DNA of 64,000 nt from an uncultured Bacteroidales bacterium (GCA_963749345.1 CAVVMO010000001.1:883336-947335), one strand, 5' to 3'. Counted from the first letter of the stretch, positions 6,876-64,000 are shown. Notes: a model not told the origin generated them from the sequence alone. Translations and numbers: made by a program.

Positions 6876-6900
6876 GATATAAATTTTTCAGGTTTGAGTT

Positions 6901-10940: not shown

Positions 10941-10999
10941 ATTTGATCATATTCCTTGTAATGACAGAATTATATAAAGACGTCTCCAGATTCAACACC

Positions 11000-11035
11000 G
11001 TCTTTGCGAAGCTGCCGGAGGGGGATGAAGCAATC
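11000..11035. repeat. REP-like palindromic element
   Basis: gtctttgcgaag...gaagcaatc; shares gtctttgcga with 4249-4258 and gaagcaatc with 4969-4977. Confidence 0.6.
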
Positions 11036-11039
11036 GATA

Positions 11040-47187: not shown

Positions 47188-47288
47188 TTTATTGGCAAGA
47201 AATAACACAAAACTATACAATCTTTATTATTATTTTTGTCAGGGTTAGAATAATAAAATTCAGGGGATTTATCCATAATTTAATGTTA

Positions 47289-48233
47289 ATGCGCAATCGA
47301 TCAAACGAGTTACAGCGAGCTTCATGGATTGGAATTGCAGGGAACGCACTCCTCGCTGTCTTAAAAATTTTGGTGGGATTTATTTCCGGAAGTTTTGCTG
47401 TAATAGGCGATGGAATTGATACAGCCACTGATGTTCTCACCTATGTGATTACCTTGATTACAGCCCGCATCATTTCAAAACCCCCCGATCCGAAATACCC
47501 CTATGGATATAAAAAAGCCGAAACATCTGCTACTAAAATTCTGGCTTTCATCATCTTTTTTGCAGGTGCTGAATTGTTCCTGTCTACCATAAGGCAACTC
47601 ATTTCTGGTGAATTGCGCGAAATGCCGATGATGATAGCCATTTATGTTACCGGACTGAGCATCGTTGGGAAATCCATTCTAGCTTACTGGCAGTCCAGAA
47701 TCGGGAAACGCATCAATAGTCAGATGATCATTGCTAATGCCCGTAACATGCGGAATGATGTTTTAATATCCTCATCGGTTCTCCTGGGATTGCTTTTTAC
47801 TTTTATTCTAAAAATGCCGGTATTTGACAGTATCACCGGTATGGTTGTAAGTATCTGGATTATAAAAGTAGCTTTCGATATTTACAAGGAATCTAATCTG
47901 GAAATGATGGACGGTTTGAAGGACACTAACATTTATAGTAAAATTTTCCAATCGGTCGAAGAAGTTGAAGGGGCATTTAACCCCCATAGAATAAGGGTAA
48001 GGAAAATTGCTGAACTTTACCTGATTGCACTCGATATTGAAGTGGATAAAGACACCAAAGTGAGTGACGCCCATTTGATAGCCAAGCAGGTTGAAAACAG
48101 GTTGAAGGTAAACATTGATAACATTTTTGACATTCTGATTCACATTGAACCGCTTGGTAATATCGAGGGTGATGAATTGGTCGGGATTTCAAAGGAAAAT
48201 TTGCACTTTAAAACAGGTTTTAAAACCATCTGA
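47289..48233 (+). CDS. Cation diffusion facilitator (FieF-like)
   Basis: GSFAVIGDGIDTATD, KPPD..YPYGY.KAE, NMRNDV, LIHIEP. Confidence 0.9.
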   Translation: MRNRSNELQRASWIGIAGNALLAVLKILVGFISGSFAVIGDGIDTATDVLTYVITLITARIISKPPDPKYPYGYKKAETSATKILAFIIFFAGAELFLSTIRQLISGELREMPMMIAIYVTGLSIVGKSILAYWQSRIGKRINSQMIIANARNMRNDVLISSSVLLGLLFTFILKMPVFDSITGMVVSIWIIKVAFDIYKESNLEMMDGLKDTNIYSKIFQSVEEVEGAFNPHRIRVRKIAELYLIALDIEVDKDTKVSDAHLIAKQVENRLKVNIDNIFDILIHIEPLGNIEGDELVGISKENLHFKTGFKTI

Positions 48234-51200
48234 TGAAGGATGGTTTTGAGATATTACCTTTAAGGCAATTGGTTGAAATAACCCTCAACCAGCTTAATAA
48301 TAAAGACTCCTTCTTTGGTATTCCTAAAGAATTGTTTTTTGAACCTAAGCCAACAGACCCTTTTCGTTTAATTCGTTTTGATCAATTGCTCGAAACTCCC
48401 ATCGGCACAGCAGCGGGACCCCATACTCAGATGTCGCAAAACATTGTGGCTGCCTGGCTTTGCGGCGCCAGATACATCGAATTAAAAACCATTCAAACGA
48501 TGGACGAATTGGAAGTCACAAAACCCTGTATCGACATGCAGGATGAAGGTTATAATTGTGAATGGTCGCAGGAATTAAGGATTCATGAGTCTTTTGACCA
48601 ATACTTAAATGCATGGATATTGGTGCATATTCTGAAGGATAAGTTAGGTCATCCATTGGAAGAAAGCTTGGGAACCATTTTCAATATGAGCATTGGCTAT
48701 GACCTTAAGGGTATTTTAAAGGAAAATGTTCAATGGTTTATCGATCAGATGAAAGACTGTAGCCTTCAAAAAGTGGCTAAGATAAATGAGATTCAGGACA
48801 TTTATCCGGGAATAGAAAGACTAAATATTCCTGATTGTATCTCCGATAATGTGACTCTCTCAACCATGCATGGTTGCCCTCCGGATGAAATCGAAAAGAT
48901 CGGTTTGTACCTGATTGAAGAAAAAAAACTCCACACTATCATCAAACTTAATCCCACGCTTCTTGGTAAAGAAAAGCTAAGCAGCATTCTGAAAAAAAGT
49001 GGTTTTGAAACCATCATTCCGGATGAAGCCTTTGAGCATGACCTGAAATATCCCGACGCTCTGCAAATCATACATACCCTCAAAAAGGCTGCTGATAAAA
49101 ACAAGGTTTATTTCGGTTTGAAGCTTACCAATACTTTGGAAAGTACTAACCTTAAAAAAGTATTACCGCCTGAGGAAAAAACAATTTACATGAGTGGAAG
49201 GGCCTTGCATCCAATTGCAATTAACCTTGCAGCTAAGCTGCAAAAAGACTTTAACGGATTACTCGACATCTCACTTTCTGCTGGTGCAAATGCTTTTAAT
49301 ACTCCTAAGGTAATATCCTGTGGACTAGTTCCGGTAACTGTTTGCACTGATTTGCTGAAACCCGGCGGATATGGATTACTAAATCAATACCTGGTTAACC
49401 TTGTGGAAAAAATGGAATTCAAAAAGTCATATTCGATTGAAGATTATATAAGGAAAACGTCCGGAGATAATAATACCATTGCTGGTTCTCAAATTAATCT
49501 TTACAATTACGCAATAGAGGTTCTTGAAGAAAAAAAATATCAGCTAACTGAACTACATAAACCGGATATAAAAACAGATAGGAAGCTCAATTACTTTGAT
49601 TGTATTTATGCCCCTTGCGTCGATACCTGCCCCACCCATCAGGATATTCCGGATTATCTGCATTTTGCTGCAAAAGGTGATTTTTCAAATGCATTTGAAT
49701 CAATATTTCTGACAAATCCCTTCCCGAATACAACAGGTATGATTTGTGACCATTTTTGCCAGACAAAATGTACCCGAATAAATTATGACAATCCGCTCCT
49801 GATAAGGGAAATTAAACGTCTGGTTGCAGAAGCATTTACTGATCAGTTAACATCAAATCAACAGCCTGAAAATGGTGTTAAAGTTGCCGTTTTAGGTGCA
49901 GGACCATCTGGTCTAGCTTGCGCATTCTATCTTACACTTGGAGGTTTTGAGGTGGACGTTTTTGAATCGAAAAGCGTTGCCGGAGGGATGGTTAATGAAG
50001 CCATTCCTGCATTCCGGTTGAATGAGGCTGGACTTAAAAAGGATTTGGAAAGATTAGAAAAGGCTGGAGTTAAGATTTTCTTTAATTCGGAAATTAATGA
50101 ACTGCGATTTAAAGAAATCCGAAGCGAATACAATTTCATTTACATTTCAACGGGTGCCTGGTCATCACGAATATTTGCAATAGATGGAATTAATTCCAAG
50201 GGAGTAGTCGATCCTCTTAAATTCCTTGCTGACATGAAGAAGGGCATCCGACCAGAAATAGGAAAAAATATTGCTGTGATCGGTGGCGGAAATACGGCTA
50301 TGGATGCTGCAAGATCAGCTTTTCGGCTAACGGGTAAAAATGGAAAGGTAACCATTCTTTATCGTCGTTCAAAAGCCCTGATGCCAGCCGCCCCGGATGA
50401 AATAAAAGCAGTTGAGGAAGAGGGTATCTCAATAATAGATTTAACCTTACCTGTCAGGGTCAATTCCATAAACAACCAGGTCAAATCATTGACTTGTGTT
50501 AAAATCAATCTTGAACAAAAAAATGGAACCGGTAGACCTATGCCTTTCGAAATTCCAAATTCAGAATTTGATCTTGAATTCGACACGGTAATTCCTGCTA
50601 TTGGACAGGATGCGGAATTTAATTTTATCGAAAAAAAATTAATCGCGACGGAAACTAAAGGTTATGAAACTCAAATTCAAAATATATTTATTGGTGGAGA
50701 TGCAAAAAGAGGGGGTTCGACCATCATCAATGCAATAGCCGATGGAAGAAAAACAGCAGAATTGATCATGCAGCGGGCCGGTTATCCACTTGAGCTTTAC
50801 CAAATAAAACGGGTACAAGAAGAGTTCAATAAACTTATGGCCAAAAAAATGGTACGTGAAAGAGCTGTCAGGATTCCAGAAACCTCATTAAATGATCGAA
50901 AGAACTTCAACCTCGTTACGAATACCCTACCCGTTGACCTGGCTCAAAAAGAAGCTTCACGTTGCTTGCTTTGCGATGAATTGTGCAATATTTGTGTCAC
51001 CGTTTGTCCTAACCTGGCTTGTTATTCTTATCAGGTTGAGCCCTTTCAGGTAAACCTTCAAAAAATTCACAAAAAAAATGGTCACCTGACCATTTCAGAC
51101 GACAAAACTTTCGGGGTAAAGCAAAACTACCAGATTTTGCATATTGCAGATTGGTGCAATGACTGCGGGAACTGTTCTACGTTTTGTCCCACATCAGGTT

Positions 51201-51511
51201 CACCATACAAGGATAAGCCTCATTTATTTCTGAGCAAGAAATCCTTTGATTGCAGTGATGAGGGTTACCATTATGATCCACTGAGGGGGCGGCTTTATTT
51301 CAAGCAAAAGATGCGGTCTTATTCGTTAGTCAAATCAGGCAATAATTACATTTTCGGGAATAATAATTCTTCAGCCGTATTAGAAGCTGCGACCTTAAAA
51401 GTAATAAGTTCTGAGCTGAAGGACGACCATGCAATATATTTGGATAAAGCCGCTGAAATGTCATTAATTTTGGCGGGAGCAAAAGAATTTTGGACGGGTT
51501 CAATTAAATAA
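48233..51511 (+). CDS. ygfK: YgfK-like Fe-S flavoprotein ('putative selenate reductase subunit')
   Basis: GTAAGPHTQ..QNI...W..GARYIELKT; CIYAPCVDTCP; CDHFCQTKC; GAGPSG; GGGNTAMD; CDELCNICVTVCPN; CNDCGNCSTFCP. Confidence 0.85.
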   Translation: MKDGFEILPLRQLVEITLNQLNNKDSFFGIPKELFFEPKPTDPFRLIRFDQLLETPIGTAAGPHTQMSQNIVAAWLCGARYIELKTIQTMDELEVTKPCIDMQDEGYNCEWSQELRIHESFDQYLNAWILVHILKDKLGHPLEESLGTIFNMSIGYDLKGILKENVQWFIDQMKDCSLQKVAKINEIQDIYPGIERLNIPDCISDNVTLSTMHGCPPDEIEKIGLYLIEEKKLHTIIKLNPTLLGKEKLSSILKKSGFETIIPDEAFEHDLKYPDALQIIHTLKKAADKNKVYFGLKLTNTLESTNLKKVLPPEEKTIYMSGRALHPIAINLAAKLQKDFNGLLDISLSAGANAFNTPKVISCGLVPVTVCTDLLKPGGYGLLNQYLVNLVEKMEFKKSYSIEDYIRKTSGDNNTIAGSQINLYNYAIEVLEEKKYQLTELHKPDIKTDRKLNYFDCIYAPCVDTCPTHQDIPDYLHFAAKGDFSNAFESIFLTNPFPNTTGMICDHFCQTKCTRINYDNPLLIREIKRLVAEAFTDQLTSNQQPENGVKVAVLGAGPSGLACAFYLTLGGFEVDVFESKSVAGGMVNEAIPAFRLNEAGLKKDLERLEKAGVKIFFNSEINELRFKEIRSEYNFIYISTGAWSSRIFAIDGINSKGVVDPLKFLADMKKGIRPEIGKNIAVIGGGNTAMDAARSAFRLTGKNGKVTILYRRSKALMPAAPDEIKAVEEEGISIIDLTLPVRVNSINNQVKSLTCVKINLEQKNGTGRPMPFEIPNSEFDLEFDTVIPAIGQDAEFNFIEKKLIATETKGYETQIQNIFIGGDAKRGGSTIINAIADGRKTAELIMQRAGYPLELYQIKRVQEEFNKLMAKKMVRERAVRIPETSLNDRKNFNLVTNTLPVDLAQKEASRCLLCDELCNICVTVCPNLACYSYQVEPFQVNLQKIHKKNGHLTISDDKTFGVKQNYQILHIADWCNDCGNCSTFCPTSGSPYKDKPHLFLSKKSFDCSDEGYHYDPLRGRLYFKQKMRSYSLVKSGNNYIFGNNNSSAVLEAATLKVISSELKDDHAIYLDKAAEMSLILAGAKEFWTGSIK

Positions 51512-51514
51512 ACT

Positions 51515-52984
51515 ATGAAAAGCAAAGAGGAAGTTTTAGCTAATACTATTAAGCGCTGCCGCGAAAAGCACATCATCATACCTACGTATAAACAAATGCG
51601 CAATCCCGAATTGATCCCCCGAAGAATTCAGGATAAGCTGAAAAATATCGGGCTATGGGATTTAAATTCATTGAACCTCTTCAGGATTAACTGGAAAAAT
51701 GAACCTGTTGATTTCGGGGGAGGTTTTGGAAAAGTCAATATCCTTGAAATACCTCCCACACTTTCTGGAGTGAAGGCAAGGATTTTTATTTTAATCGGTA
51801 AATTCTTCCCCACAGGTGCACATAAAGTAGGTGCTACTTTCGGCCCTTTGGTCGAAAAACTGGTTACCGGTCAGTTCGATCCCACCTGGCAAAAAGCATT
51901 GTGGCCTTCAACAGGGAATTATTGCCGTGGAGGGGCTTACGATTCTTACCTTCTGGGATGCAATTCAATTGCAGTTCTTCCTGAAGAAATGTCGAAAGAG
52001 CGTTTCGAATGGCTTCATAGAGTGGGTGCTGAAGTTTTCGCTACACATGGCTGCGAAAGCAATGTTAAAGAGATTTATGACAAAGTAAAAGAACTCAAAG
52101 CAGAAAGAGGAGAGGAAATTGTAAACCTCAACCAGTTTGAAGAATTTGGTAATCCGCGCTGGCATTATGCAGTTACCGGACCAGCAATGGAAGAAGTATT
52201 TACAACAGTGAAAACTGAAAAAAGCAGGTTTAGTGCGGTATTTCTTACACAAGGATCAGCCGGAACGCTAGGAAGCACGGATTATCTTCGTGAACGATTT
52301 CCAATGATGAAAGTCTGCGCAGGAGAAGCCTTGCAGTGCCCTACCCTGCTTTATAACGGATATGGTGGACATCGCATCGAAGGCATTGGCGATAAACATG
52401 TGCCCTGGGTTCACAACATTAAAAACATGGACATGGTAGCTGGTATTGATGACGATGCCAACATCCGGATCATGCGGCTGTTCAACGAAGTTGCAGGCAG
52501 AAATTATTTGATCAATGAAATTGGTATTGATCCGCTCCTGGCAGATAAATTAGGATTGCTTGGCATTTCATCCATAGCTAACCTGATGGGAGCAATCAAG
52601 ATGGCAAAGTATTACGAAATGAATGGGGATGATTTTGTCTTTACCGTTGCCACCGACTCAATGGAAATGTATCGCTCCAGGCTCCGTGAAGAAAATGAAA
52701 GCCATGGCAATTTTGATGCACTTAATGCTGCCATTTCCTATGAAGCCGATTTGCTTAAACTTTCCATCGATTACATGATTGAATTGAACCATTATGACAA
52801 AAAGAGAATTCATAACCTGAAATACTTCACCTGGATCGAACAACAGGGTAAGACCGTTGAAGAACTGAATGATCAATGGTTTGACAACAATTACTGGAAA
52901 GCAAAATATTCAGGTATTGATTCATGGGATGAGAAGATCAATGAGTTCAATGAAAAGACCGGGTTATTGAAGGAATATGAGTAA
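51515..52984 (+). CDS. PLP-dependent fold-type II enzyme of unknown substrate
   Basis: FPTGAHKVG (PLP Lys), STGNY, NQF, GSAGTLG, HRIEGIGDKH (cysteine synthase-like features). Confidence 0.8.
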   Translation: MKSKEEVLANTIKRCREKHIIIPTYKQMRNPELIPRRIQDKLKNIGLWDLNSLNLFRINWKNEPVDFGGGFGKVNILEIPPTLSGVKARIFILIGKFFPTGAHKVGATFGPLVEKLVTGQFDPTWQKALWPSTGNYCRGGAYDSYLLGCNSIAVLPEEMSKERFEWLHRVGAEVFATHGCESNVKEIYDKVKELKAERGEEIVNLNQFEEFGNPRWHYAVTGPAMEEVFTTVKTEKSRFSAVFLTQGSAGTLGSTDYLRERFPMMKVCAGEALQCPTLLYNGYGGHRIEGIGDKHVPWVHNIKNMDMVAGIDDDANIRIMRLFNEVAGRNYLINEIGIDPLLADKLGLLGISSIANLMGAIKMAKYYEMNGDDFVFTVATDSMEMYRSRLREENESHGNFDALNAAISYEADLLKLSIDYMIELNHYDKKRIHNLKYFTWIEQQGKTVEELNDQWFDNNYWKAKYSGIDSWDEKINEFNEKTGLLKEYE

Positions 52985-54209
52985 AGCATTCGTTTATTAT
53001 TGCCCCAACTGCGACAAGGAATATCCCGGAACGGAGATCATCTACCTGTGTCCCGGTTGTAGCAATAACAATTTTCTCCCTCCAAAGGGAGTCCTCCGGG
53101 TCATTTACGATTATCTTGATATACCCCGGGAATCAGACATTTTCCACTACTTAATTTCGACCGGATTTATCGACCTTCTCCCTATCCGGTCATTAAATTC
53201 ACTTCCTCCTTTGCGAATAGGAAATACGCCTCTTTACGCATTCAATAGATTTGCAGGTAAACCCCTGTCATTTGAATTATTATTAAAGGATGATTCCCTA
53301 AATCCGACATTTTCTTTCAAGGATCGTGCTTCTGCTTTGGTCTCTGCTTTTGCCAAAGAACATGGTCAAAACACCATCATCACTGCTTCAACAGGAAATG
53401 CAGGCTCATCTCTCGCAGGTATATGTGCATCCCAGGGACAAAAAGCCATGATTGTTGTTCCTTCCGACGCACCGGTTGCCAAACTCACCCAGATTTTAAT
53501 GTATGGAGCGACAATTATTCCCATACTCGGAACCTATGATGATGCATTTGAACTGAGTATTCAGGCCACCCGGGAATTTGGTTGGTATAATCGCAATACC
53601 GCCTTTAATCCCCTCACCATTGAAGGCAAAAAAACAGTCGCTTTTGAGTTATTTCAGCAAATGAATGGCCGTCTCCCCGACCGGATATTTGTACCCGTTG
53701 GCGATGGTGTAATTATTTCAGGGGTCTACAGGGGCTTCGAAGACCTTTTCATTTTAAATCTTATCGAAAGAATTCCCATTATTGTTGCAGTGCAGGCCGA
53801 AGGAAGTTCTAATCTTATCAGCAATCTTCAGGCTGAAGAATTCAAAGTCAGGAAAAGTCATACCATTGCCGATTCAATTGCTGTTGATTATCCACGGAAT
53901 TTTTATATGGCTCGTGGTTACATCAACGATTACGCTGGAGAAGCGATTTCTGTCACCGATCTGGAGATTCTCGATGCCTCGCGTCAACTTGCTGTCAATA
54001 CAGGCATTTTTATCGAACCTGCATCGGCTGCTGCAGTCGCCGGAATGCTGAAATATTACAAAGAGGATAAGCTCAATACCGGCACAAGAAATGTTGTCCT
54101 GCTCACCGGCAGCGGGCTAAAGGATATTAATGCCGTTCAACCATTATTGAACTTGCCCGCTCCCATTGAACCAAAAATAGCTGAAATTCAAACCCTCCTG
54201 AAACTTTAG
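52977..54209 (+). CDS. Threonine synthase-like PLP enzyme with N-terminal Zn-finger
   Basis: CPNC...CPGC; NPTFSFKDRAS; ASTGNAG; PVGDGVI; EPASAA; LLTGSGLKD. Confidence 0.85.
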   Translation: MSKAFVYYCPNCDKEYPGTEIIYLCPGCSNNNFLPPKGVLRVIYDYLDIPRESDIFHYLISTGFIDLLPIRSLNSLPPLRIGNTPLYAFNRFAGKPLSFELLLKDDSLNPTFSFKDRASALVSAFAKEHGQNTIITASTGNAGSSLAGICASQGQKAMIVVPSDAPVAKLTQILMYGATIIPILGTYDDAFELSIQATREFGWYNRNTAFNPLTIEGKKTVAFELFQQMNGRLPDRIFVPVGDGVIISGVYRGFEDLFILNLIERIPIIVAVQAEGSSNLISNLQAEEFKVRKSHTIADSIAVDYPRNFYMARGYINDYAGEAISVTDLEILDASRQLAVNTGIFIEPASAAAVAGMLKYYKEDKLNTGTRNVVLLTGSGLKDINAVQPLLNLPAPIEPKIAEIQTLLKL

Positions 54210-54439: not shown

Positions 54440-54514
54440 GGTGGAAGATGGGGCTCGAACCCACGGCCTTCAGATCCACAATCTGACGCTCTAACCAGCT
54501 GAGCTACAACCACC
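54440..54514 (-). tRNA. tRNA-His(GTG)
   Basis: Reverse complement GGTGGTTGTAGCTCAGCTGGTTAGAGCGTCAGATTGTGGATCTGAAGGCCGTGGGTTCGAGCCCCATCTTCCACC; anticodon arm TCAGA-TTGTGGA-TCTGA; G-1:C73. Confidence 0.95.
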
Positions 54515-54607: not shown

Positions 54608-55885
54608 ATGAAAAAAAGTTTAACTATTTCTTCTTTTTTGGCAGTAGCCACACTTTTTATGGTGCTCCTCTTTGCAAGCTTTACATTACCTGACTACAAA
54701 AACACAAAAGCCACAACCGGAGGACTGCTAACATTTACTGTAAGAACTGTAACTGATAACGGAACCTATTCCCCAAAACATGTTCTGGCCATTTGGGTCG
54801 AAGACGCCGATGGTTTTGTTAAAACCAGAAAAGCGATGGCCAATCAGCGGAAACAATACCTGTACACATGGAAAGCAGCTTCAAACTATAACGTGGTGGA
54901 TGCAATTACCGGCTCAACACTCACCAGCCACCAAACCCATACTGTTGAATGGAACTGTACAGATCTTTCCGGTAATATTGTACCCGATGGAGATTACACT
55001 GTTTGGGTTGAATTCACAGGTAAGCATGCTCAGGGACCTTTGTACAACATTACCTTTGCCAAAGGGCCTAATGCCCAATCTTTTAGCCCAGCTGACCAAA
55101 CCTATTTTAAAGATATACAGCTCGATTTTATTCCCTATGTTGCTGAATTTACATCCGATGTAACTGATATTTGCCAAAGTGAAATTGTAACGTTTACTGA
55201 TCAGTCAGTCGGTGCAACTTCATGGTCCTGGAATTTTGGTGCAGGTGCATCACCTGCTTCAGCTATTACCATGGGTCCTCATACCGTGATATATTCAACA
55301 CCTGGTCCTAAATCAGTAAGTTTAACAATTAATAGTTCCGTTACTGAAACAAAACAAAACATGATTACAGTTAATGCTTCACCAACCGCCGAGTTCAGCT
55401 TTTCCGGAATTGAATATACAGTAGAATTTCTGAATGGTTCCGTAAATGCAACTTCATATTTATGGGATTTTGGAGATGGAAATACAAGTACTGAAAATAA
55501 TCCATCTCACACCTATGCCAGCGCTGGCACTTATATAGTTTCGCTTACTGCCACCTATATGGATTGCAATGATCTTATAACTCATGAAGTTTCGCTACCC
55601 ATGGTTGGGTTCAACAATCAATTGATTAACAATAATGAAGCAGTTTCAATATTTCCTAATCCTTCAGCTGGATTAATAAGCATAAGAATGAATGAACAAG
55701 CCCCTGGAACTGTTTCAGTAACTGTTTTTAATACTTTAGGGAAGATTATTCATGAATCAACCACTTCAAACCTGACAGTAAATCACACCATAAATCTTGA
55801 TCTGTCAAATCAGCCTAAAGGAATCTACTACATAAAAATTGGAAGCAACAACCTGAAAGCGAATAAGAAAATCATGCTTTATTAA
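54608..55885 (+). CDS. DUF2271 plus PKD domain protein with T9SS type A CTD
   Basis: HVLAIWVEDADGFVKT...DAITGST (DUF2271-like); WSWNFG and YLWDFGDG..STENNPSHTY (PKD); IFPNPS...GIYYIKI...KKIMLY. Confidence 0.82.
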   Translation: MKKSLTISSFLAVATLFMVLLFASFTLPDYKNTKATTGGLLTFTVRTVTDNGTYSPKHVLAIWVEDADGFVKTRKAMANQRKQYLYTWKAASNYNVVDAITGSTLTSHQTHTVEWNCTDLSGNIVPDGDYTVWVEFTGKHAQGPLYNITFAKGPNAQSFSPADQTYFKDIQLDFIPYVAEFTSDVTDICQSEIVTFTDQSVGATSWSWNFGAGASPASAITMGPHTVIYSTPGPKSVSLTINSSVTETKQNMITVNASPTAEFSFSGIEYTVEFLNGSVNATSYLWDFGDGNTSTENNPSHTYASAGTYIVSLTATYMDCNDLITHEVSLPMVGFNNQLINNNEAVSIFPNPSAGLISIRMNEQAPGTVSVTVFNTLGKIIHESTTSNLTVNHTINLDLSNQPKGIYYIKIGSNNLKANKKIMLY

Positions 55886-56366: not shown

Positions 56367-56386
56367 AATTCAACAGTTGTTGAATT
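56367..56386. promoter_or_regulatory. Perfect 8-4-8 palindrome, candidate activator binding site
   Basis: aattcaac-agtt-gttgaatt about 155 nt upstream of the putative -24/-12 element. Confidence 0.4.
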
Positions 56387-56539
56387 TGTTTACAGCATCA
56401 TTAAAAACTTGTTTTACTGATCTATACATAATGTTTATGCCAATAGTGTTTAATTTTTAAACACCATAGTGTGAATGAATTTTAAACATCTCTTTTGTTA
56501 TAATATTGAATATAATATAGTTATAACTGATTTATAGCT

Positions 56540-56556
56540 TTGGTATCAAAGTTGAA
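56540..56556 (+). promoter_or_regulatory. Putative sigma-54 (-24/-12) promoter
   Basis: TTGGTATCAAAGTTGAA: GG-N10-GA versus consensus TGGCAC-N5-TTGC; a sigma-54 activator is encoded at the end of the same gene run. Confidence 0.45.
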
Positions 56557-56621
56557 ATACCTTTAAAAATATAAGTTAATTATATATGATTTTTTTTACA
56601 ACTATTTTAAAACTAAATATT

Positions 56622-58334
56622 ATGAAAAATACATTTCTTCTTTTCGTAAGTTTTTTACTCCTTTATTCAAGTTTTGCAATTAGTAAAGAAGTATTGAAAA
56701 AAGACAATACAGTCAAGGATAATACAATAACTATTTTGTGTTCTCCCGATTTGTATGATCTCACAAAGCAATGGACAAGCGCCTATTGCAAGTTTAATCC
56801 CAGCACTGAAATTAACTTAATTACCGCCAATCCTGATGCGTTGGGCAGCAAGTTTAACACTGGTGTAAATTTAGGTTTTATTTCAAATCGATATTATCCA
56901 TCGATTGAAAGTGTAAGCAATTCGCTATGGGTAGTGGTGATTGGTCGGGATATCATTGTTCCGATTATTAATTCTAAAAATCCATTTATCGATAAAATCA
57001 ATCAACAGGGTATTTCATCCTTTGAGTTGGCTGAAATATTTGAAAACCCACAAACGCAGAACTGGAGGTCACTCATTGAAAACGGGGAAAATGCTCCTTT
57101 GAATTACTATTTGATAGCAAATGAATCAGTAAAATCAGATGTGGCAAATTTCATGAATGTAAATCAAATAAATATTAAGGGAATAGAAGTAAATATTGGT
57201 AAAGAACTTGTCACTGCTGTTCAAAATGATCCTTACGCGATAGGTTTTTGTAAATTAACCGATATTATTAATTCCGGCAATCAGGATTTTGTTGACAATA
57301 TAAAGTTGCTGCCAATCGATAAAAACGGGAACGGGCAAATTGATTACTTTGAAAAAATATATGATAATCTGAATGATTTCTCCAGAGGTGTTTGGATAGG
57401 GAAATACCCTAAAACATTGATATGTGAGTTATATTCAGTCTCCAATGGCATTCCGAAAAATGAAACGGAAGTGGCATTTTTGAAATGGGTGCTCACCGAA
57501 GGTCAGCAAATAGTGGTAAATAATGGTTTTAGCGAACTGGTATATAATGAAAGGCAAACGAAGTTGGAAAAGCTAAATGATCATAAGATTTATGCTGAAA
57601 CCACAAAGGATCAATATGCCTTGAAAAACATACTATTTCTTATTTTTATTGTATTCATGGTATTCCTGGCAGGCGGGTTATTTGTTAACGTTATAGTCCG
57701 GAAAAGAAGGAATAATATTAAGACTCAAAATAAAGGCTTATCCAATCATCCTAAAGTGATCAATGAAAATTCTTTGACTGTTCCCAATGGATTGTACTTC
57801 GATAAAACACATACATGGGTTTTTATGGAAAAAGATGGAATTGTCAAAGTAGGTATTGATGATTTCCTGCAGCATATCACTGGACCCTATTCGCATCTGA
57901 AAATGAAAAATCCTGGTGACAAGATAAAAAAGAATGAGCAGATATTGTCTCTTATTCAAAACGGTAAACATTTAAATATATATGCAGCGATTTCAGGAAC
58001 GATAATAGATATAAATGAACATTTGATTACTGATCCTTCAATAATCAACCGCTCCCCTTATGCTGAAGGTTGGGTTTACATGATTGAACCATCCAACTGG
58101 TTACGTGAAATCCAGTTCTTACGAATGGCAGAGAGATACAAAGAATGGATACAAAATGAATTTTCAAAGTTAAAGGATTTTCTTGCTGTTTCGGTGCATA
58201 CCAAAACCGCCGGATATGCCCACGTTACGTTTCAGGAGGGTGGGGAACTTAAAGATAATGTACTACAGGATTTTGGACCTGAAGTCTGGGAAGATTTTCA
58301 AAAAAATTTCATTGATACTGCCGGATTAAGGTGA
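56622..58334 (+). CDS. PstS-like periplasmic binding domain, TM helix and GcvH-like domain fusion
   Basis: Signal peptide; IGRDIIVPIINSKNP...ELAEIF (PBP-like); TM ILFLIFIVFMVFLAGGLFVNVIV; FDKTHTWV...VKVGIDDF...ISG...N..L..DP.IIN.SPY.EGW (H-protein fold). Alternative start at 56586. Confidence 0.8.
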   Translation: MKNTFLLFVSFLLLYSSFAISKEVLKKDNTVKDNTITILCSPDLYDLTKQWTSAYCKFNPSTEINLITANPDALGSKFNTGVNLGFISNRYYPSIESVSNSLWVVVIGRDIIVPIINSKNPFIDKINQQGISSFELAEIFENPQTQNWRSLIENGENAPLNYYLIANESVKSDVANFMNVNQINIKGIEVNIGKELVTAVQNDPYAIGFCKLTDIINSGNQDFVDNIKLLPIDKNGNGQIDYFEKIYDNLNDFSRGVWIGKYPKTLICELYSVSNGIPKNETEVAFLKWVLTEGQQIVVNNGFSELVYNERQTKLEKLNDHKIYAETTKDQYALKNILFLIFIVFMVFLAGGLFVNVIVRKRRNNIKTQNKGLSNHPKVINENSLTVPNGLYFDKTHTWVFMEKDGIVKVGIDDFLQHITGPYSHLKMKNPGDKIKKNEQILSLIQNGKHLNIYAAISGTIIDINEHLITDPSIINRSPYAEGWVYMIEPSNWLREIQFLRMAERYKEWIQNEFSKLKDFLAVSVHTKTAGYAHVTFQEGGELKDNVLQDFGPEVWEDFQKNFIDTAGLR

Positions 58335-58374
58335 ATTTGTCAATAGCTTTCTCTAACAATCAAAATTAGCAGTT

Positions 58375-59238
58375 ATGAGGATAGATAGAAGAAACTTTTT
58401 CAGGGTGCTTGGTTTAACAGGGGCATCACTGGCTATTGGAAGAGAATTGAACGCAGCACCAATAAATGAAAATGAAATTGAATTCAATGGTATTCTATAT
58501 GATTCGACCCGTTGTGTTGGATGCCAGAGTTGCGAATATGCCTGCGCAAAAGCCAACGGTTTGCCGGAACCTACCGATTCACCGGAAATTGGTATGTTGC
58601 GCAAAACTAATGAATCAAGACGATCTGTAATTAACGGTTATAATACTTCGAAGGGCGAAGTTTATGTCAAACGCCAGTGTATGCAATGTAACGAACCGGC
58701 TTGCACTGCGGCTTGCCTGACACAGGCGATGCTTAAAACCAAAGAAGGGCCGGTTATTTGGAGGGGTGAAAAATGCATGGGTTGTCGTTATTGCATGGTT
58801 TCCTGCCCTTTTGATATTCCGAAATTTGAGTATTTCAGTTCGAATCCAAAGATTACAAAGTGCGATATGTGTCATGACCGTCTGCTGGAAGGCAAAATGC
58901 CTGCCTGTGTTGAAAATTGCGAGACAGAAGCACTTGTATTTGGAACGCGATGGGAACTAATCAAAGAGGCACGCAAACGTATTCAGGAAAATCCGGAATT
59001 CTATGTGGATCAAATTTATGGTGAAAAAGAAGCTGGTGGTACTGGATTCCTTTACCTTTCGCCTGTTCCATTTGATGAATTAGGCTTCAGTACAAAAATC
59101 CAAAAGACTTCATACCCCGAATTGTCAAAAGGATTTCTTTATAGTGTCCCGACCATATTTGTTCTTTGGCCGGCAATTTTACTAGGAATTCAGGAAGCCA
59201 CCAAAAATAACCATCATAACGAAGAGGAAAATGAATGA
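58375..59238 (+). CDS. HybA/HmcB-like Tat-exported 4x[4Fe-4S] protein
   Basis: RRNFF Tat motif; CVGCQSCEYAC, CMQCNEPAC...C, CMGCRYCMVSC, CDMC...PACVENC; C-terminal TM. Confidence 0.9.
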   Translation: MRIDRRNFFRVLGLTGASLAIGRELNAAPINENEIEFNGILYDSTRCVGCQSCEYACAKANGLPEPTDSPEIGMLRKTNESRRSVINGYNTSKGEVYVKRQCMQCNEPACTAACLTQAMLKTKEGPVIWRGEKCMGCRYCMVSCPFDIPKFEYFSSNPKITKCDMCHDRLLEGKMPACVENCETEALVFGTRWELIKEARKRIQENPEFYVDQIYGEKEAGGTGFLYLSPVPFDELGFSTKIQKTSYPELSKGFLYSVPTIFVLWPAILLGIQEATKNNHHNEEENE

Positions 59239-60463
59239 TATAATTAGTTATACAATAGCAAAAGGCCACGAAAGTATAAACTTATGGAAGTTTTTACTCA
59301 ACGAATTGAAACCAAAGGGTAAAATATTTACCCCATTCAACATCATTTCTCTACCCATCATACTGTTAGGCCTGGTGCTTATTGTTATCCGGTTCTGGAA
59401 AGGAATCGGATCAATAACAAATCTAACTCAGGAAGTTCCCTGGGGATTGTGGATTGGGTTTGATGTGGTAACAGGCGTTGCATTTGCAGGTGGGGCTTAT
59501 GTGATCACTTTTATGGTGTATATTCTGAATATGCAGAAATATCATTCCATTGTCAGGGTTACAGTATTGAATGGATTTCTGGCTTATGCATTTTATGCGG
59601 GCGCACTATTACTCGACCTTGGACGTCCCTGGAATGTGATCAATCCGATCATCGGTAACAGCTTTGGCACAAGCTCGGTGCTGTTCCTTGTTGCCTGGCA
59701 CTTCCTGCTGTACATGATTGCACAGTTAATTGAATTTTCACCTGCTATAGCAGAATGGCTTGGTGCCCGTCGTGCCCGAAAGATCCTTTCAAGCATGACC
59801 CTTGCAGCGGTCATTTTTGGTATCACTTTATCCACTCTGCATCAATCGGGATTGGGGGCTCTCTATCTTATGGCAAAAGACAAAATTCATCCGCTTTGGT
59901 ATTCAGAATTCATTCCCATCCTATTTTTTGTATCAAGCATCTTTGCCGGGCTCTCTATGGTTATCTTTGAGGGATCTATCAGCCGAAAAGTATTTTTTGA
60001 TCAGATCAGCGAAAGAAACCATCGTTCACATAATGGCATCATCCGTGGTTTATCAAAAATCTGTGCCGGAGCGATGTTTGCTTACTTTTTTCTTCAAATC
60101 CTCGTTTTTGTGCATGGCAAACAATGGAACTTGTTAAATACCCCGATGGGTTACTGGTACCTTACGGAGATGGTTGGGTTCGTGCTTCTCCCGATGATGC
60201 TTTTCTTTTTTAGTTACCGGAGGAATAATATTTTATTGATAAAAGTTGCATCCATCATCACCATGGTCGGAATCATTATAAACAGGTTAAATGTTACTGT
60301 AATTGGGTTCAGATGGGATGCGGCGACACACTATTTTCCATCGTGGATGGAAATTGTTGTCACTATGTCGGTTATATTCACAGAAATATGGATATTCAGG
60401 TGGGTAATTAATCGCATGCCTGTTTTACGTGAATCGCCAAAATGGATTAAAGATATAAAATAA
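59231..60463 (+). CDS. HybB/HmcC-like NrfD-family integral membrane subunit
   Basis: PWGLWIGFDVVTGVAFAGGAY, DLGRPW, STLHQSGLG, about 10 TM helices; overlaps the HybA-like gene. Confidence 0.9.
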   Translation: MNDIISYTIAKGHESINLWKFLLNELKPKGKIFTPFNIISLPIILLGLVLIVIRFWKGIGSITNLTQEVPWGLWIGFDVVTGVAFAGGAYVITFMVYILNMQKYHSIVRVTVLNGFLAYAFYAGALLLDLGRPWNVINPIIGNSFGTSSVLFLVAWHFLLYMIAQLIEFSPAIAEWLGARRARKILSSMTLAAVIFGITLSTLHQSGLGALYLMAKDKIHPLWYSEFIPILFFVSSIFAGLSMVIFEGSISRKVFFDQISERNHRSHNGIIRGLSKICAGAMFAYFFLQILVFVHGKQWNLLNTPMGYWYLTEMVGFVLLPMMLFFFSYRRNNILLIKVASIITMVGIIINRLNVTVIGFRWDAATHYFPSWMEIVVTMSVIFTEIWIFRWVINRMPVLRESPKWIKDIK

Positions 60464-60511
60464 ATTAACCTGCTTTCATTGTTAACAATGTATGGCATAA
60501 AACATAATTAA

Positions 60512-61222
60512 ATGGACGGATTTATTTATACTGACATTTTTGAGACAAAAGGAATTGAATATTTGATCATTATCTCATTCCTTGTCATCCTGATCCTGTT
60601 CTGGATCATCCTCAATAAACAAACAGAAGTGACAAATCGAATTCACAAAGCGATGGGTGCACTTACAGCCAGTATTTTAAGAATTCCGCATGGACTGTTC
60701 TACAGTAAAAATCACACATGGGCACACTTAGAAAAATCAGGCAATGCAAAAGTAGGACTGGATGACTTTTTGCTCCAAATTGTTGGGGATGTAAAAGTCA
60801 ACCCTCTTAAATTTCCCGGTGAAAAACTCAGAAAGAATGAGATCCTTGCAGAAATTTATCAAAATGGTAAACGGCTTAGAATAATTTCTCCTATATCAGG
60901 TGAAGTTGTCAGCACAAATACCTTGATCAGGGATAATCCTGAACTGCTGCATGATGATCCTTACGGAAAGGGCTGGATTTATGCCATAAAACCGTCAAAC
61001 TGGAAGGAAGATATTCATTCGTATTACCTGGCAGAGGAAGCAACGCATTGGATAACAAAAGATCTGGACCGATTTAAGGATTTTTTGGCCATATCGATTG
61101 GAAAATATTCCACCGAACCATCGATGATTGCGCTCCAAGAAGGAGGTGAACTTCGTCGGAACATCCTTTCAGAATTAGATCATGAAATATGGAATGAATT
61201 TCAGGAATCATTTTTAGACTAA
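60512..61222 (+). CDS. Membrane-anchored GcvH-like protein
   Basis: N-terminal TM (EYLIIISFLVILILFWIIL); NHTWA...KVGLDDF...SPISGEVV..N...DNPELLHDDPYGKGWIY. Confidence 0.85.
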   Translation: MDGFIYTDIFETKGIEYLIIISFLVILILFWIILNKQTEVTNRIHKAMGALTASILRIPHGLFYSKNHTWAHLEKSGNAKVGLDDFLLQIVGDVKVNPLKFPGEKLRKNEILAEIYQNGKRLRIISPISGEVVSTNTLIRDNPELLHDDPYGKGWIYAIKPSNWKEDIHSYYLAEEATHWITKDLDRFKDFLAISIGKYSTEPSMIALQEGGELRRNILSELDHEIWNEFQESFLD

Positions 61223-61331
61223 TTTAGACTTGCATAAATTTTAGTACCCTATCGTAGTAATTTTTATTATCTTGCGGTCATATAAATCGGTCAGTTATTT
61301 TACATTGATCGATTAAAAAAAATGAGGTTAT

Positions 61332-63005
61332 ATGGCGCTTATTAATAAATCAGGATTCCAAAAAAGCAGAGGATATAAGTTTTACGAAAAGTATTTAAGA
61401 TTCCGGTCTTCGATCTATAGCCGGGTTATATTTATCATTACCATATTGTCGGTATTCTTGTTTGTATCCTTTGGGTTAATTTTCAGATCCGTATACGAAG
61501 ATTACCTGAACACTGTCATCCGCCAAAGTGGAAATAACATCGGATCCATCGTGGAGGGAGCATTATATTATTCCATGCTCCAAAACGATAAAAGCTCGCT
61601 GCAAAGCACACTTGATATCATCAATACCATGCCGGGTATTGATGAAGTTAATATGTACAATAATCAGGATAGCCTTGTATATTCATCCTTCTCTTTCGAC
61701 ACAACCACCGAGAGCAATCCCAATTGCAAAAGTTGCCACGAGGATATTAAATCAATGTTTCCCGGTAATGAAAAATCATACAAGATTATTGACAAGGCCA
61801 GTGCTTGTTTAATGAGTCAGAACGAAAATGGTCACAGACAATTGTTAATACGGTCCCCAATATACAATGAAAGATCCTGTTACCTGAGTTCCTGTCATGC
61901 GCATCAGCAATCAGATGTTGAGCTCGGATCTCTGATTATCAAAGTTCCATTGCAAGACCTTGATGTGGCGGTTATAAAATCTTCCCGGGATTTTTTTCTG
62001 TTTGCTACAATTACCACCATCTTACTTGTTTCCTTTTTAATATTTTTTACGAGAAAAAAAATTAAAAACCCACTCAAGGCTATTATCAAAGCAAGCGAAG
62101 CTGTAGCTAGGGGTGACAAAAGTATGCGACTGGAAATTACACCCTACCTTTTAGATGACATGAGGATGGTTTCCATTGCCTTCAATAATATGCTCGATAA
62201 TCTTAATTTAGCAACCAAGGAATTGGAAAACTGGTCGCATCAGCTCGAATACAAGGTCCAAAAAAAATCAGAAGAATTATCCGAAATTCAAAATGAATTA
62301 ATCCATGTGGAGAGAATCGCATCCCTCGGGAAACTCTCTTCATCTGTCGCCCACGAAATAAATAATCCATTATCGGGTGTTTTAACTTATACCAAGTTGG
62401 TTCATAAACAGTTGAACAAACTGGATTTGGATAGTAAAGCAAAAGAATCCATGTTAAAATATCTGACAGTGATTGAAACAGAAACCAAGCGGTGTGGTGA
62501 CATTGTTAAAGGATTGCTCGATTTTTCAAGAAAAGACCAGGAGAATTTTGAGAATAAACAATTGCATAAAATATTAAAGGATACTTATGATTTGATGGCA
62601 CACCAGATGAAAATGGCAAATATTAACTTTTATACCGATTTTTCAGCCCTTTCGGATTTAATATATTGCAGTGAAAATCAAATAAAACAGGCTTGTGTTG
62701 CCATTTTGGTAAATGCTTCTGAAGCGGTTCCGGAGAATGGGGAAATTCTGATAAAAACAATGAATCCTGACGAGGATCATATAAGGCTCGAAATTACTGA
62801 TGACGGTGTGGGCATCGCACCTGAAGATATGCCCCATATTTTTGAACCATTTTTCTCAGCCAAGCAAAAAGCCAGCGGTATTGGTTTGGGACTGGCCATT
62901 GTTCATGGAATAGTTCAAAGCCACAAAGGCAAATTAGAAATAAAATCCGAGCCTGGAAAGGGAACAACCCTTGCCATAATTTTACCATTGGTCAAGAAAC
63001 AATAA
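61332..63005 (+). CDS. Sensor histidine kinase with periplasmic CxxCH, HAMP, HisKA and HATPase domains
   Basis: Two TMs; CKSCH and CYLSSCH between them; VAHEINNPL; NQIKQ...LVNASEA; DDGVGI; FEPFFS; GIGLGL. Confidence 0.92.
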   Translation: MALINKSGFQKSRGYKFYEKYLRFRSSIYSRVIFIITILSVFLFVSFGLIFRSVYEDYLNTVIRQSGNNIGSIVEGALYYSMLQNDKSSLQSTLDIINTMPGIDEVNMYNNQDSLVYSSFSFDTTTESNPNCKSCHEDIKSMFPGNEKSYKIIDKASACLMSQNENGHRQLLIRSPIYNERSCYLSSCHAHQQSDVELGSLIIKVPLQDLDVAVIKSSRDFFLFATITTILLVSFLIFFTRKKIKNPLKAIIKASEAVARGDKSMRLEITPYLLDDMRMVSIAFNNMLDNLNLATKELENWSHQLEYKVQKKSEELSEIQNELIHVERIASLGKLSSSVAHEINNPLSGVLTYTKLVHKQLNKLDLDSKAKESMLKYLTVIETETKRCGDIVKGLLDFSRKDQENFENKQLHKILKDTYDLMAHQMKMANINFYTDFSALSDLIYCSENQIKQACVAILVNASEAVPENGEILIKTMNPDEDHIRLEITDDGVGIAPEDMPHIFEPFFSAKQKASGIGLGLAIVHGIVQSHKGKLEIKSEPGKGTTLAIILPLVKKQ

Positions 63006-63012
63006 AAAAATA

Positions 63013-64000
63013 ATGATAAAAAAAATTTCACTGTTGATCGTTGACGATGAAGAATCGGTAAGAGATTCTTTATACAACTGGTTCATCGAAGATGGCTATA
63101 ATGTTGATGGTGCCGAAAATGCCAAGGAGGCCTTATCAATGCTTGAATCAAAAAATTATGACATTATCCTGGCTGATATCAAAATGCCCGGAATGGACGG
63201 GCTTGAGATGCACAGAAGAATCAAATCCCTGAATAAGGATTCCATTGTCATTGTTATGACCGCATTTGCGTCTGTTGAAACGGCAGTTCAGGCATTAAAA
63301 GACGGAGCGTATGATTACGTAACGAAGCCTTTTGACCCGGATGATCTGTCTCATTTAATTCGCAATGCAGCAAGCCAGATAACCCTTAAAGCTGAAAATG
63401 AGGCCCTGAAAAACAAAATCATCTCCCTTGAAAACATTGAAGATATTATCGGGAACAGCGATGCCATGATGAAGGTTCTCAAGGAAGTTGAGAGTGTCGC
63501 CCAATCGAATTCATCGGTGATCATCACCGGTGAAAGCGGCACGGGGAAAGAGCTTATCGCCAGGGCTATTCATTCCAATTCCCCGCGTAAATATTTTCCC
63601 ATGGTGAGTGTACATTGCGGGGCTTTATCAGAAAGTTTGCTGGAAAGTGAGTTATTCGGACATGAAAAAGGGGCATTTACCGGTGCTATGTTTAACCGTA
63701 AAGGAAGATTTGAAATGGCTGATGGTGGTACTATATTTCTAGATGAAATAGCTACTATTTCTGCAAAAATGCAAATTGAATTGTTGAGAGTATTGGAATC
63801 AAAAACTTTTATGCGTGTAGGAGGCAATAAGGAAATTAAATCAGATTTCAGGGTTATTTGCGCCACCAACAGGGATTTAAAAAAACTGGTTGAATCCGGC
63901 ACTTTTCGCGAAGACCTATATTACAGGCTGAATGTTGTGAATATTAAAATTCCTCCCCTTCGTGAGAGACCTGAGGATATTCCCCAGCTTGTTGATCACT
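63013..64000 (+). CDS. Sigma-54-dependent (NtrC/AtoC-type) response regulator, 3'-truncated by the window edge
   Basis: Not in the ORF track. MIKKISLLIVDDEE, ADIKMPGMDG, TGESGTGKELIARAIH, ESELFGHEKGAFTGA, FREDLYYRLNV. Confidence 0.93.
   Translation, partial: MIKKISLLIVDDEESVRDSLYNWFIEDGYNVDGAENAKEALSMLESKNYDIILADIKMPGMDGLEMHRRIKSLNKDSIVIVMTAFASVETAVQALKDGAYDYVTKPFDPDDLSHLIRNAASQITLKAENEALKNKIISLENIEDIIGNSDAMMKVLKEVESVAQSNSSVIITGESGTGKELIARAIHSNSPRKYFPMVSVHCGALSESLLESELFGHEKGAFTGAMFNRKGRFEMADGGTIFLDEIATISAKMQIELLRVLESKTFMRVGGNKEIKSDFRVICATNRDLKKLVESGTFREDLYYRLNVVNIKIPPLRERPEDIPQLVDH

Follow-up and report, generated by a model that had tools for sequence, protein, structure and literature searches.

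A 64,000-nt stretch of DNA from an uncultured Bacteroidales bacterium (GCA_963749345.1, CAVVMO010000001.1:883336-947335), hereafter the window, was analyzed. At its 3' end lies an operon that places an iron-sulfur (Fe-S)/NrfD-type electron-transfer pair beside two GcvH-like membrane proteins and a two-component system. Six genes, g1 to g6, were recognized by open reading frame (ORF) listing and domain scans with Pfam and NCBIfam. All are present on the + strand and tightly packed, with intergenic distances of -8 to 110 nt. A first-pass annotation of the same DNA had pointed to this run, i.e., a fusion of a periplasmic binding protein (PBP), a transmembrane helix and GcvH, a twin-arginine translocation (Tat)-exported 4x[4Fe-4S] protein, an NrfD subunit, a transmembrane GcvH protein, a CxxCH kinase, and an NtrC-type regulator, and the ORFs and domain scans confirmed it. 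The six genes stood as described, but a seventh gene, for a Peptidase_M54 protein, and the promoter and enhancer sites upstream of 56540 had been missed.

Homologs were surveyed by scanning one genome per species with a family-specific peptide pattern, which covers close family members only. Close relatives were found in 185 genomes, and the best 80 of the 185 were retrieved. Gene order was counted by tblastn of the six window proteins in the 64 loci with sufficient flanking DNA for evaluation. Order and strand of g1-g6 were unchanged in 64/64 evaluable loci of other species, and given this count the six-gene arrangement is not chance. The Peptidase_M54 gene was located directly 3' of g6, again in 64/64 loci, by tblastn and by clustering of flanking ORFs. 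The same clustering detected no other conserved gene on either flank of the related loci, and no hydrogenase, Hmc remainder, or molybdenum bis(pyranopterin guanine dinucleotide) (Mo-bisPGD) subunit was attached in any related locus. The operon comprises seven genes, kept in at least 64 and probably about 185 mostly uncultured Bacteroidales species. All seven were present in the locus of the most divergent g4-type relative (33% identity), with overlapping stop and start codons, and also in L083, another distant relative, and L001.

The conservation differed among the genes. The median identity to the window protein across species was 82% for g6 and 81% for g3, the two most conserved genes of the operon, followed by g2 (68%), g5 (67%), the GcvH-like domain of g1 (58%), and g4 (57%). 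The periplasmic domain of g1 was the least conserved part (42%). For the g4 protein, about 2000 full-length homologs of about 236 aa were found, and their named sources were Bacteroidales/Bacteroidota metagenome-assembled genomes. A profile search of 1.8 billion representative proteins (threshold E <= 1e-30) gave 425 clusters, of which the best 150 fell into two architectures, a g4-type of about 236 aa and a g1-type of about 560 aa. Of the 80 listed loci, nearly all were labelled Bacteroidales/Bacteroidota; the spread to Ignavibacteriota and Desulfobacterota that the first-pass annotation had envisaged was not seen among these close family members. In L011 (labelled Chlorobiota) and L034 (labelled Omnitrophica WOR_2), the operon showed 55-82% identity to the Bacteroidales versions, and either mis-binning or recent transfer would account for it.

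Terminator-like sites inside g1-g6 were no commoner than chance. A defense-system hypothesis was dropped, as the sole PADLOC match was the generic AAA+ domain of the regulator. Literature searches combining GcvH-like with NrfD, HmcB/HmcC with Bacteroidetes, and archaemetzincin with Bacteroidetes found no description of the operon. It is a real, strongly conserved, and apparently undescribed operon in which known types of parts are newly combined.

The g2 gene (58375..59238, +) encodes a 4x[4Fe-4S] protein that is exported by Tat and anchored in the membrane at its C-terminus, recognized by the RRNFF motif, a Fer4_11 match, and 16 Cys in four ferredoxin-type groups. In its family, the Tat motif was found in 64/66 members and a C-terminal hydrophobic segment was present. 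The best NCBIfam match was HmcB at 315 bits (cut-off 420), and HybA scored 229 bits. The g3 gene (59231..60463, +), whose reading frame overlaps that of g2, encodes an HmcC/HybB-like integral membrane subunit predicted to interact with quinone. It scored 48.5 bits with PF03916 (NrfD; cut-off 25.8), and its best NCBIfam match was HmcC at 409 bits (cut-off 550), with HybB at 258 bits. The NrfD profile score above the gathering score and the pairing with a periplasmic 4x[4Fe-4S] subunit, g2, place g3 in the NrfD class.

The g3 family (65 members) was aligned with E. coli HybB, and the residue roles were taken from PMC8076601. The HybB residues D58, D109, S129, R89, Y99, E148, H184, K198, H200, E291, and R329 were retained in 56-65 of the 65 members. 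Y99, E148, H184, and R329 were kept in 65/65, D109 as D/E in 65/65, and R89 as R/K in 65/65. In HybB, mutation of R89, Y99, E148, or H184 impairs hydrogenase-2 (Hyd-2), D58 and D109 belong to the quinone site, and R329 is central (PMC8076601). Because these functional residues are kept in g3, the g2/g3 pair looks like a working quinone-coupled module and not a relic. NrfD subunits carry no cofactor (PMC8076601), and therefore electrons cannot pass from g2 to the cytoplasm. From these matches, g2 and g3 are predicted to be an HmcBC/HybAB-type menaquinone-linked electron-transfer pair to which no catalytic subunit is attached.

The g1 gene (56586..58334, +) encodes a signal peptide, a PstS-like PBP domain, a transmembrane helix (aa 349-371, predicted at 57630-57698, +), a GcvH-like domain (aa 403-524, 57792-58157, +; Pfam GCV_H, E 3e-26), and a C-terminal extension, as assigned by Pfam and alignment. 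The product is 582 aa long from 56586, and its true start is probably M13 (nt 56622), because the family alignment points there. The Pfam match to PBP_like_2 was weak (E 6e-4); the domain is homologous to PstS, as the family profile matched the structures 4omb and 4pqj (E 6e-9 to 9e-9) and 4h1x (3e-7). The phosphate-ligand motifs of PstS, which we take to be an N-terminal G-S-x-T and R...S-G-T, were not retained. In the alignment, S-S-P-D-L-Y of the family stands opposite G-S-D-T-L-A of 4omb, and Y-x-x-N-x-E-S opposite F-G-R-N-S-V-S. The invariant columns of the family alignment were M13, K14, D245, N247, N249, G250, D253, and E256. Six of these columns lie in an EF-hand-like calcium-binding loop, DKNGNGQIDYFE (aa 245-256, 57318-57353, +), which was recognized by alignment inside the PstS-like domain. 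Its pattern is D-K-N-G-N-G-x-I-D-x-x-E, with positions 1, 3, 5, 9, and 12 invariant across 34 species and the Gly at position 6 conserved in at least 90%.

The second GcvH-like protein, g4 (60512..61222, +; 236 aa), consists of a short conserved N-tail, a transmembrane segment at about 60560-60616, a flexible linker, a GcvH-like domain (60680-61021; GCV_H, E 2e-21), and a C-terminal extension. The g4 protein and the sensor domain of g5 were modelled with AlphaFold2 (AF2) and compared by Foldseek. The g4 model (predicted local distance difference test, pLDDT, 83) matched the H-proteins 1onl, 3a8i, and 3ab9 with a target TM-score of 0.90-0.92 and a root-mean-square deviation of 1.3-1.7 A, i.e., the H-protein fold is present. 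The lipoyl-lysine motif E-S-V-K is absent. In the hidden Markov model alignment with the T. thermophilus and E. coli GcvH, Gly119 of the family stands opposite the lipoyl-Lys. A Lys follows one residue after this Gly in a conserved Q-N-G-K turn, located by translation and alignment at 57957-57968 (+) in g1 and 60860-60871 (+) in g4, and this Lys was replaced by R/N/Q/H in 15/250 (6%) of the g4-type proteins. No conserved Cys was found in the GcvH-like family alignments. The two domains scored below all four NCBIfam cut-offs, including the GcvH equivalogs PRK01202 (88 and 78 bits; cut-off 117) and TIGR00527 (76 and 70 bits; cut-off 116). Ordinary lipoyl carriers seem unlikely, because Gly occupies the lipoyl-Lys position, the adjacent Lys is replaceable, and no Cys is conserved.

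By the positive-inside rule, both GcvH-like domains were predicted to be cytoplasmic and the PBP domain of g1 periplasmic. The first-pass annotation, which had taken the H-fold proteins to be membrane-bound, had missed the cytoplasmic location of both domains. The N-tail and transmembrane helix of g4 (MDGFxYxNIFETKGIEYL...) are nearly invariant, which suggests a specific contact within the membrane. The C-terminal extension common to g1 and g4 is family-specific and has about 60 residues, i.e., a long helix, short strands, and a helix, with the motifs KDF, Q-x-G-G-E, and W..FQ..F. Foldseek with the g4 model gave no structural match for it.

The g5 gene (61332..63005, +) encodes a sensor histidine kinase. 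By Pfam and the model, it is composed of a first transmembrane helix, a periplasmic single-Cache-like domain, a second transmembrane helix, HAMP, HisKA (H341), and HATPase. Two Cys/His motifs were found in the translation, CKSCH (CxxCH, 61725-61739, +) and CYLSSCH (Cx4CH, 61878-61898, +). The first had been noticed in the first-pass annotation, but the second and the Cache fold had not. Both motifs were present in 77/84 family kinases. C132, C135, H136, C159, C183, C188, H189, and H191 were invariant in the family and M82 and M161 nearly so; H191, C159, M82, and M161 are candidate distal heme ligands. The AF2 model of the sensor (pLDDT 73) has a single-Cache/PDC fold with a long helix and a 5-stranded sheet. 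Its Foldseek matches were the WalK extracellular domain, KinD, DctB, and the heme-c sensors GSU0935 (3b42, E 8e-6) and GSU0582 (3b47); like the latter two, it is a Cache domain with an inserted CxxCH. The sensor gave no match to PF11845 (DUF3365/Tll0287) even at E up to 10, and its Pfam similarities to sCache_4 (E 0.11) and Cytochrome_C7 (E 0.18) were weak, with none significant. A word-indexed homolog search returned 85 fragments, all from the operon's own kinase family. CxxCH together with Cx4CH and an invariant His is the classic c3-type heme signature. HmcB-type Fe-S proteins normally receive electrons from c3-type cytochromes, which bear the same pair of motifs. The fold and the motifs suggest that g5 is likely a heme-bearing sensor kinase.

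In six loci (L019, L026, L041, L055, L066, and L059), g5 and g6 were separated by a further kinase of about 555 aa, a HAMP-HisKA-HATPase paralog. The g2 and g3 of this subclade were only about 55-60% identical to those of the window.

The g6 gene (63013..64000, +) is cut by the window end. Its translation contains a REC domain (Asp in ...LADIKMP...) and a sigma-54 AAA+ domain with GAFTGA, and NCBIfam assigned it as AtoC/NtrC-type. Full-length relatives have 445-447 aa and a C-terminal HTH_8; the full-length orthologue in L001 showed Response_reg, Sigma54_activat, AAA_lid_14, and HTH_8. The M54 gene follows directly after g6 at 13981-14517 in L001 and at 13791-14321 in L082, where its start overlaps the regulator stop codon. 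From these orthologous loci, and not from window DNA, we infer that in the genome of the window it starts just past 64000. Its product has 175-180 aa and belongs to Peptidase_M54 (archaemetzincin), with HExxHxxGxxH and Cys pairs. The L018 orthologue scored 72.9 bits with PF07998 (cut-off 24.4), and the zinc motif was found in 54/54. By its sequence, it would be a cytoplasmic zinc peptidase. After it, the related loci carried unrelated genes and no hydrogenase or Hmc operon, which the first-pass annotation had named as the finding that would count against a new module.

A sigma-54-type -24/-12 element, TGGTATCAAAGTTGA, was found at 56541..56555 (+) with the pattern TGG[CT]A[CT]-N5-TTG[AGC]. Of 67 loci, 57 had the pattern in the 220 nt before g1, whereas the background of these loci predicts 0.15. 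The whole window holds two matches, 56541 and 16482 (- strand), and the latter was dismissed as it lies inside a + strand ORF. A window search for the strict TGGCAC-N5-TTGC found none upstream of g1 and no overall excess. The promoter is visible only through the comparison of loci, because its -12 element is TTGA or TTGG. In the related loci, two or three palindromes of the form GTGTTGAA-N3-5-TTCAACAC lie 100-200 nt further upstream. In the 400-nt windows before g1, 68 such sites were counted, against 21 in about 1 Mb elsewhere in the related loci, i.e., an enrichment of about 120-fold. In most related loci, TTCAACA/TGTTGAA half-sites occur some 150-200 nt before the promoter, and 7-mer enrichment found TGTTGAA in 58/68 upstream regions. 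In the window, the distal activator site is the palindrome AATTCAACAGTTGTTGAATT (56367..56386, +), built from these half-sites. The proximal site is the palindrome GTGTTTAA-TTT-TTAAACAC (56446..56464, +), the single match of TGTTKAA-N2-6-TTMAACA in the 64-kb window, where 0.03 were expected.

This layout is standard for an NtrC-activated sigma-54 promoter. With the REC, AAA+ (GAFTGA), and HTH_8 domains of the regulator, the HisKA/HATPase kinase, the -24/-12 promoter, and the upstream sites, the locus has the parts of an NtrC-type sigma-54 system. From its linkage, g6 would be the protein that binds the palindromic sites. An internal promoter was sought in the g4-g5 gap, and the Bacteroidetes-type -7 motif TAnnTTTG was found there in 9/78 loci, near expectation. 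The proposal in the first-pass annotation that the two-component system controls its own operon has direct support, at the sequence level, from these promoter and palindrome counts. Its wider interpretation held in part. The co-occurrence is conserved, with the same gene order in 64/64 loci and in the relative of 33% identity, and the H-folds are unlikely to be ordinary lipoyl carriers. The role of these proteins as signalling adaptors is hypothetical, as are their contacts with the kinase or NrfD and ligand binding by the PBP domain.

The reading that we prefer, tentatively and at nearly an even chance, is that the hemes of the kinase are linked to the menaquinone pool through the Fe-S/NrfD pair, that kinase and regulator autoactivate the operon, and that the GcvH-like proteins are non-catalytic subunits or adaptors. 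The link from g2/g3 to the kinase hemes is drawn because the putative two-heme domain of g5 is the sole encoded periplasmic redox partner for g2. Electrons would move between the menaquinone pool, via g3 and g2, and the hemes of g5, or between these hemes and an external oxidant. The redox or ligand state of the hemes would set the kinase activity. Phosphorylated g6 would bind the TGTTGAA-N-TTCAACA sites and activate the sigma-54 promoter, i.e., positive autoregulation, and it may act on other genes in the genome as well. The g4 protein would be a stoichiometric subunit anchored to the complex by its conserved N-terminal membrane helix, and the transmembrane segment of g1 may likewise be part of the membrane assembly. 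The PBP domain of g1 would add a periplasmic ligand input beside the g5 sensor, comparable to TorT, LuxP, and AioX with their kinases. The cytoplasmic GcvH-like domains would serve as non-catalytic docking or regulatory modules, and the M54 peptidase possibly acts on them as substrates or partners.

Several points weigh against this reading. All contacts among the operon proteins are drawn from co-conservation. No output gene besides the sensing apparatus was found in the window or the 8-kb flanks, and the output would be either the complex itself or a regulon elsewhere. The confidence of the g5 sensor model is moderate (pLDDT 73) and falls to its lowest at the motif loops, and the CxxCH and Cx4CH of the sensor could bind metal instead. 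The Lys beside the hairpin Gly is kept in 65/66 g1 proteins, and modification of g1 at this Lys is possible. The -12 element is TTGA/TTGG, whereas the canonical one is TTGC. The reading does not account for the M54 peptidase and the C-terminal extension. A bolder form of the preferred reading, which is conceivable but rather doubtful, holds that the Fe-S/NrfD module has been co-opted as the input of a two-component system and keeps the covalently bound hemes of the Cache kinase in redox equilibrium with menaquinone, with the membrane-tethered, non-lipoylated GcvH-fold proteins as new cytoplasmic signalling adaptors possibly controlled by M54. If true, it would be a new way of reading the state of the electron-transport chain and a new function of the H-fold.

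It is also possible, on balance not probable, that the four membrane proteins are a respiratory or detoxifying quinol:acceptor (or donor:quinone) oxidoreductase and are themselves the output. The PstS-like domain of g1 would then bring an anionic periplasmic substrate close to the Fe-S protein or recruit a partner encoded elsewhere. The kinase and regulator would be dedicated inducers, and the hemes of the kinase would detect the substrate or a gas, for instance nitric oxide (NO). An inducible sigma-54 promoter, as in many respiratory operons, agrees with such an enzyme, and the triad of PBP, kinase, and sigma-54 regulator in AioXSR controls arsenite oxidase. Heme-Cache sensors fused to signalling modules act as NO sensors (PMC12889525), and g3 keeps the residues of energy-coupled NrfD proteins under very strong purifying selection. 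However, no catalytic subunit, i.e., Mo-bisPGD, NiFe, or multiheme reductase, was found in the 64 complete loci or their flanks. A PBP fold brings no redox cofactor, and conservation is lowest in the PBP domain (median 42%). The phosphate-ligand motifs of g1 are not retained, and no alternative ligand suggests itself. The motifs of g5 may, in a less likely case, bind metal or form disulfides; the kinase would then be a sensor of metal or thiol stress, functionally independent of the Fe-S/NrfD pair. The missing significant Pfam match to a cytochrome or DUF3365, the third invariant Cys (C159) and the extra His (H191) alongside the motifs, and the low model confidence at the motif loops would fit such a sensor. 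However, heme is favored by the c3-type signature with its invariant His and by the fold search, in which GSU0935 and GSU0582, both heme-c sensors, ranked among the best, and a strictly linked periplasmic Fe-S carrier would otherwise have no partner.

The GcvH-like domains could instead be lipoylated or acylated carriers that move reducing equivalents or an acyl or aminomethyl group at the cytoplasmic face of the complex, which we regard as very unlikely. The fold is that of a true H-protein (target TM-score 0.9), the Lys by the hairpin tip is kept in 94% of the g4-type proteins as well as in g1, and lipoate-binding GcvH-like proteins have a function apart from glycine cleavage in sulfur-oxidizing Hdr-like systems. 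Nevertheless, the canonical Lys position is Gly, the adjacent Lys is R/N/Q/H in some members, and the scores stay under the GcvH equivalog cut-offs. The cofactor-less NrfD leaves g2 with no electron path into the cytoplasm (PMC8076601). Glycine cleavage P/T/L, Hdr, and lipoate ligase or synthase genes are not conserved nearby. It is hardly credible that the run is the remnant of a decayed Hmc or hydrogenase-2 operon beside unrelated GcvH-like and regulatory genes. The best scores of g2 and g3, with HmcB/HmcC and HybA/HybB, are what such a remnant would show, but the seven-gene order is identical in 64/64 loci down to 33% identity, with overlapping stop and start codons and a shared promoter and enhancer. 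The functional residues of g3 are intact, and no Hmc or Hyb partner gene was present in any locus.

The Pfam scan covered 49/50 of the window ORFs of at least 110 aa, several of them without any Pfam match. Among the ORFs scanned, no glycine cleavage P/T/L, lipoate, or hydrogenase family was found, as the first-pass annotation had stated, and no P/T/L genes were conserved in the flanks of related loci. The same annotation had its genes, domains, direction, and spacing right but had also reported no molybdenum catalytic subunit in the window, where a xanthine dehydrogenase (XDH)-family cluster lies at 42194-46594. It is composed of XdhC (42194-42847, +), a FAD/2Fe-2S subunit (42847-44316, +), and an XDH-family molybdenum cofactor (MoCoBD) subunit (44297-46594, +). 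In substance the claim survives, because this cytoplasmic XDH-type enzyme is not the Tat-exported Mo-bisPGD type found as partner of Fe-S/NrfD modules and is not conserved next to the operon in other genomes. The cluster is followed by a 1092-aa protein with Fer4_20 and Pyr_redox_2 (48233-51508, +), which we take to be YgfK/GltD-like, and by two pyridoxal phosphate (PLP)-dependent (PALP) enzymes (51515-54209, +). The whole of 42194-54209 is presumably similar to the clusters with which enterobacteria and gut anaerobes degrade purines and xanthine anaerobically.

Two secreted proteins with a type IX secretion C-terminal sorting domain were found. One has 1359 aa with DUF5017 and fn3 (13575-17651, +), and the other has 425 aa with DUF2271, FlgD_ig, and PKD (54608-55885, +). 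These proteins and a Peptidase_S46 (21195-23387) fit a Bacteroidota origin. A tRNA gene (54440-54513, -) between the PLP-enzyme pair and the latter secreted-protein gene was the single Rfam match, and the Rfam scan of the window found no other RNA element. At 5064-8868 (-), two paralogous transglutaminase-like proteins with DUF3857/DUF3858 (604 and 655 aa) are encoded in tandem. A probable truncated insertion sequence element, a 214-aa ORF with a partial ISL3 transposase profile match, was found at 10942-11583 (-).

Like g2/g3, HmcB/HmcC and HybA/HybB pair a C-terminally anchored, Tat-exported 4x[4Fe-4S] protein with a cofactor-less NrfD-like subunit. The operon differs from both complexes in its partners, which are two GcvH-like membrane proteins and a two-component system. 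From the Hmc complex (HmcABCDEF) it is separated by the scores of g2 and g3 below the cut-offs, and no HmcA (16-heme cytochrome), HmcD, HmcE (cytochrome b), or HmcF (CCG protein) was among the conserved neighbours in 81 loci. From hydrogenase-2 (HybOABC) it is separated by HybC and HybO, which were absent from the window ORFs scanned and from every related locus. Some fifteen types of NrfD-like complexes are distinguished, each defined by its catalytic partners, and the composition of the operon is not among them; for HybB, no occurrence in Bacteroidetes was reported (PMC8076601). If the sole encoded periplasmic redox partner is a sensor kinase, the NrfD family would extend from energy conversion to signalling.

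GcvH, GcvH-L of S. pyogenes (5a35), not_gcvH (TIGR03077), and GcvH_rel_desulf (NF045810) have the barrel-sandwich H-fold and the GCV_H match in common with g1 and g4. The two operon proteins differ from them in their membrane anchors, the Gly at the lipoyl-Lys position, and the 60-residue C-terminal extension. The H-protein fold would gain a non-lipoyl, membrane-tethered role. In DsrMKJOP, DsrJ carries heme c, possibly with an unusual Cys ligand, DsrO is the Fe-S protein, and DsrP is the NrfD protein. A periplasmic c-type heme protein beside an Fe-S/NrfD pair would be common to both systems. However, the operon lacks DsrM and DsrK and with them a transmembrane electron path, and its putative heme domain is part of a kinase.

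Among PBP-assisted kinases, TorT-TorS-TorR and AioX-AioS-AioR combine a periplasmic binding-protein fold with a sensor kinase that controls a periplasmic redox system. Aio uses an NtrC-type sigma-54 activator, and in Tor the c-type cytochrome TorC feeds back on TorS. By analogy, these systems appear closest to the operon in logic. In the operon, however, a transmembrane helix joins the PBP to a cytoplasmic GcvH-like domain in one fusion protein, the kinase itself carries the heme motifs, and no catalytic subunit of a reductase or oxidase is under control in cis.

Heme-c Cache sensors of the DUF3365/Tll0287 family, with one CxxCH motif, were described in 2026 (PMC12889525). The g5 sensor shares with the sCache_heme proteins GSU0582 and GSU0935 the periplasmic Cache/PAS-like fold, the CxxCH, and the fused signalling module, but it has no PF11845 match, has two motifs and not one, and always stands beside an Fe-S/NrfD pair. 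With it, heme-Cache sensors would gain a two-heme member. The hosts are anaerobic, mostly uncultured Bacteroidales from sediments, groundwater, and digesters, where the sensed signal is probably a common redox cue, and the conserved promoter and enhancer offer a handle for reporter assays and a regulon search. Since the defining features of GcvH proper, the Hmc complex, and Hyd-2 were examined and not found, the operon stands outside these three, and it belongs to the class of NrfD-like/Fe-S pairs and to the NtrC-type sigma-54 systems.

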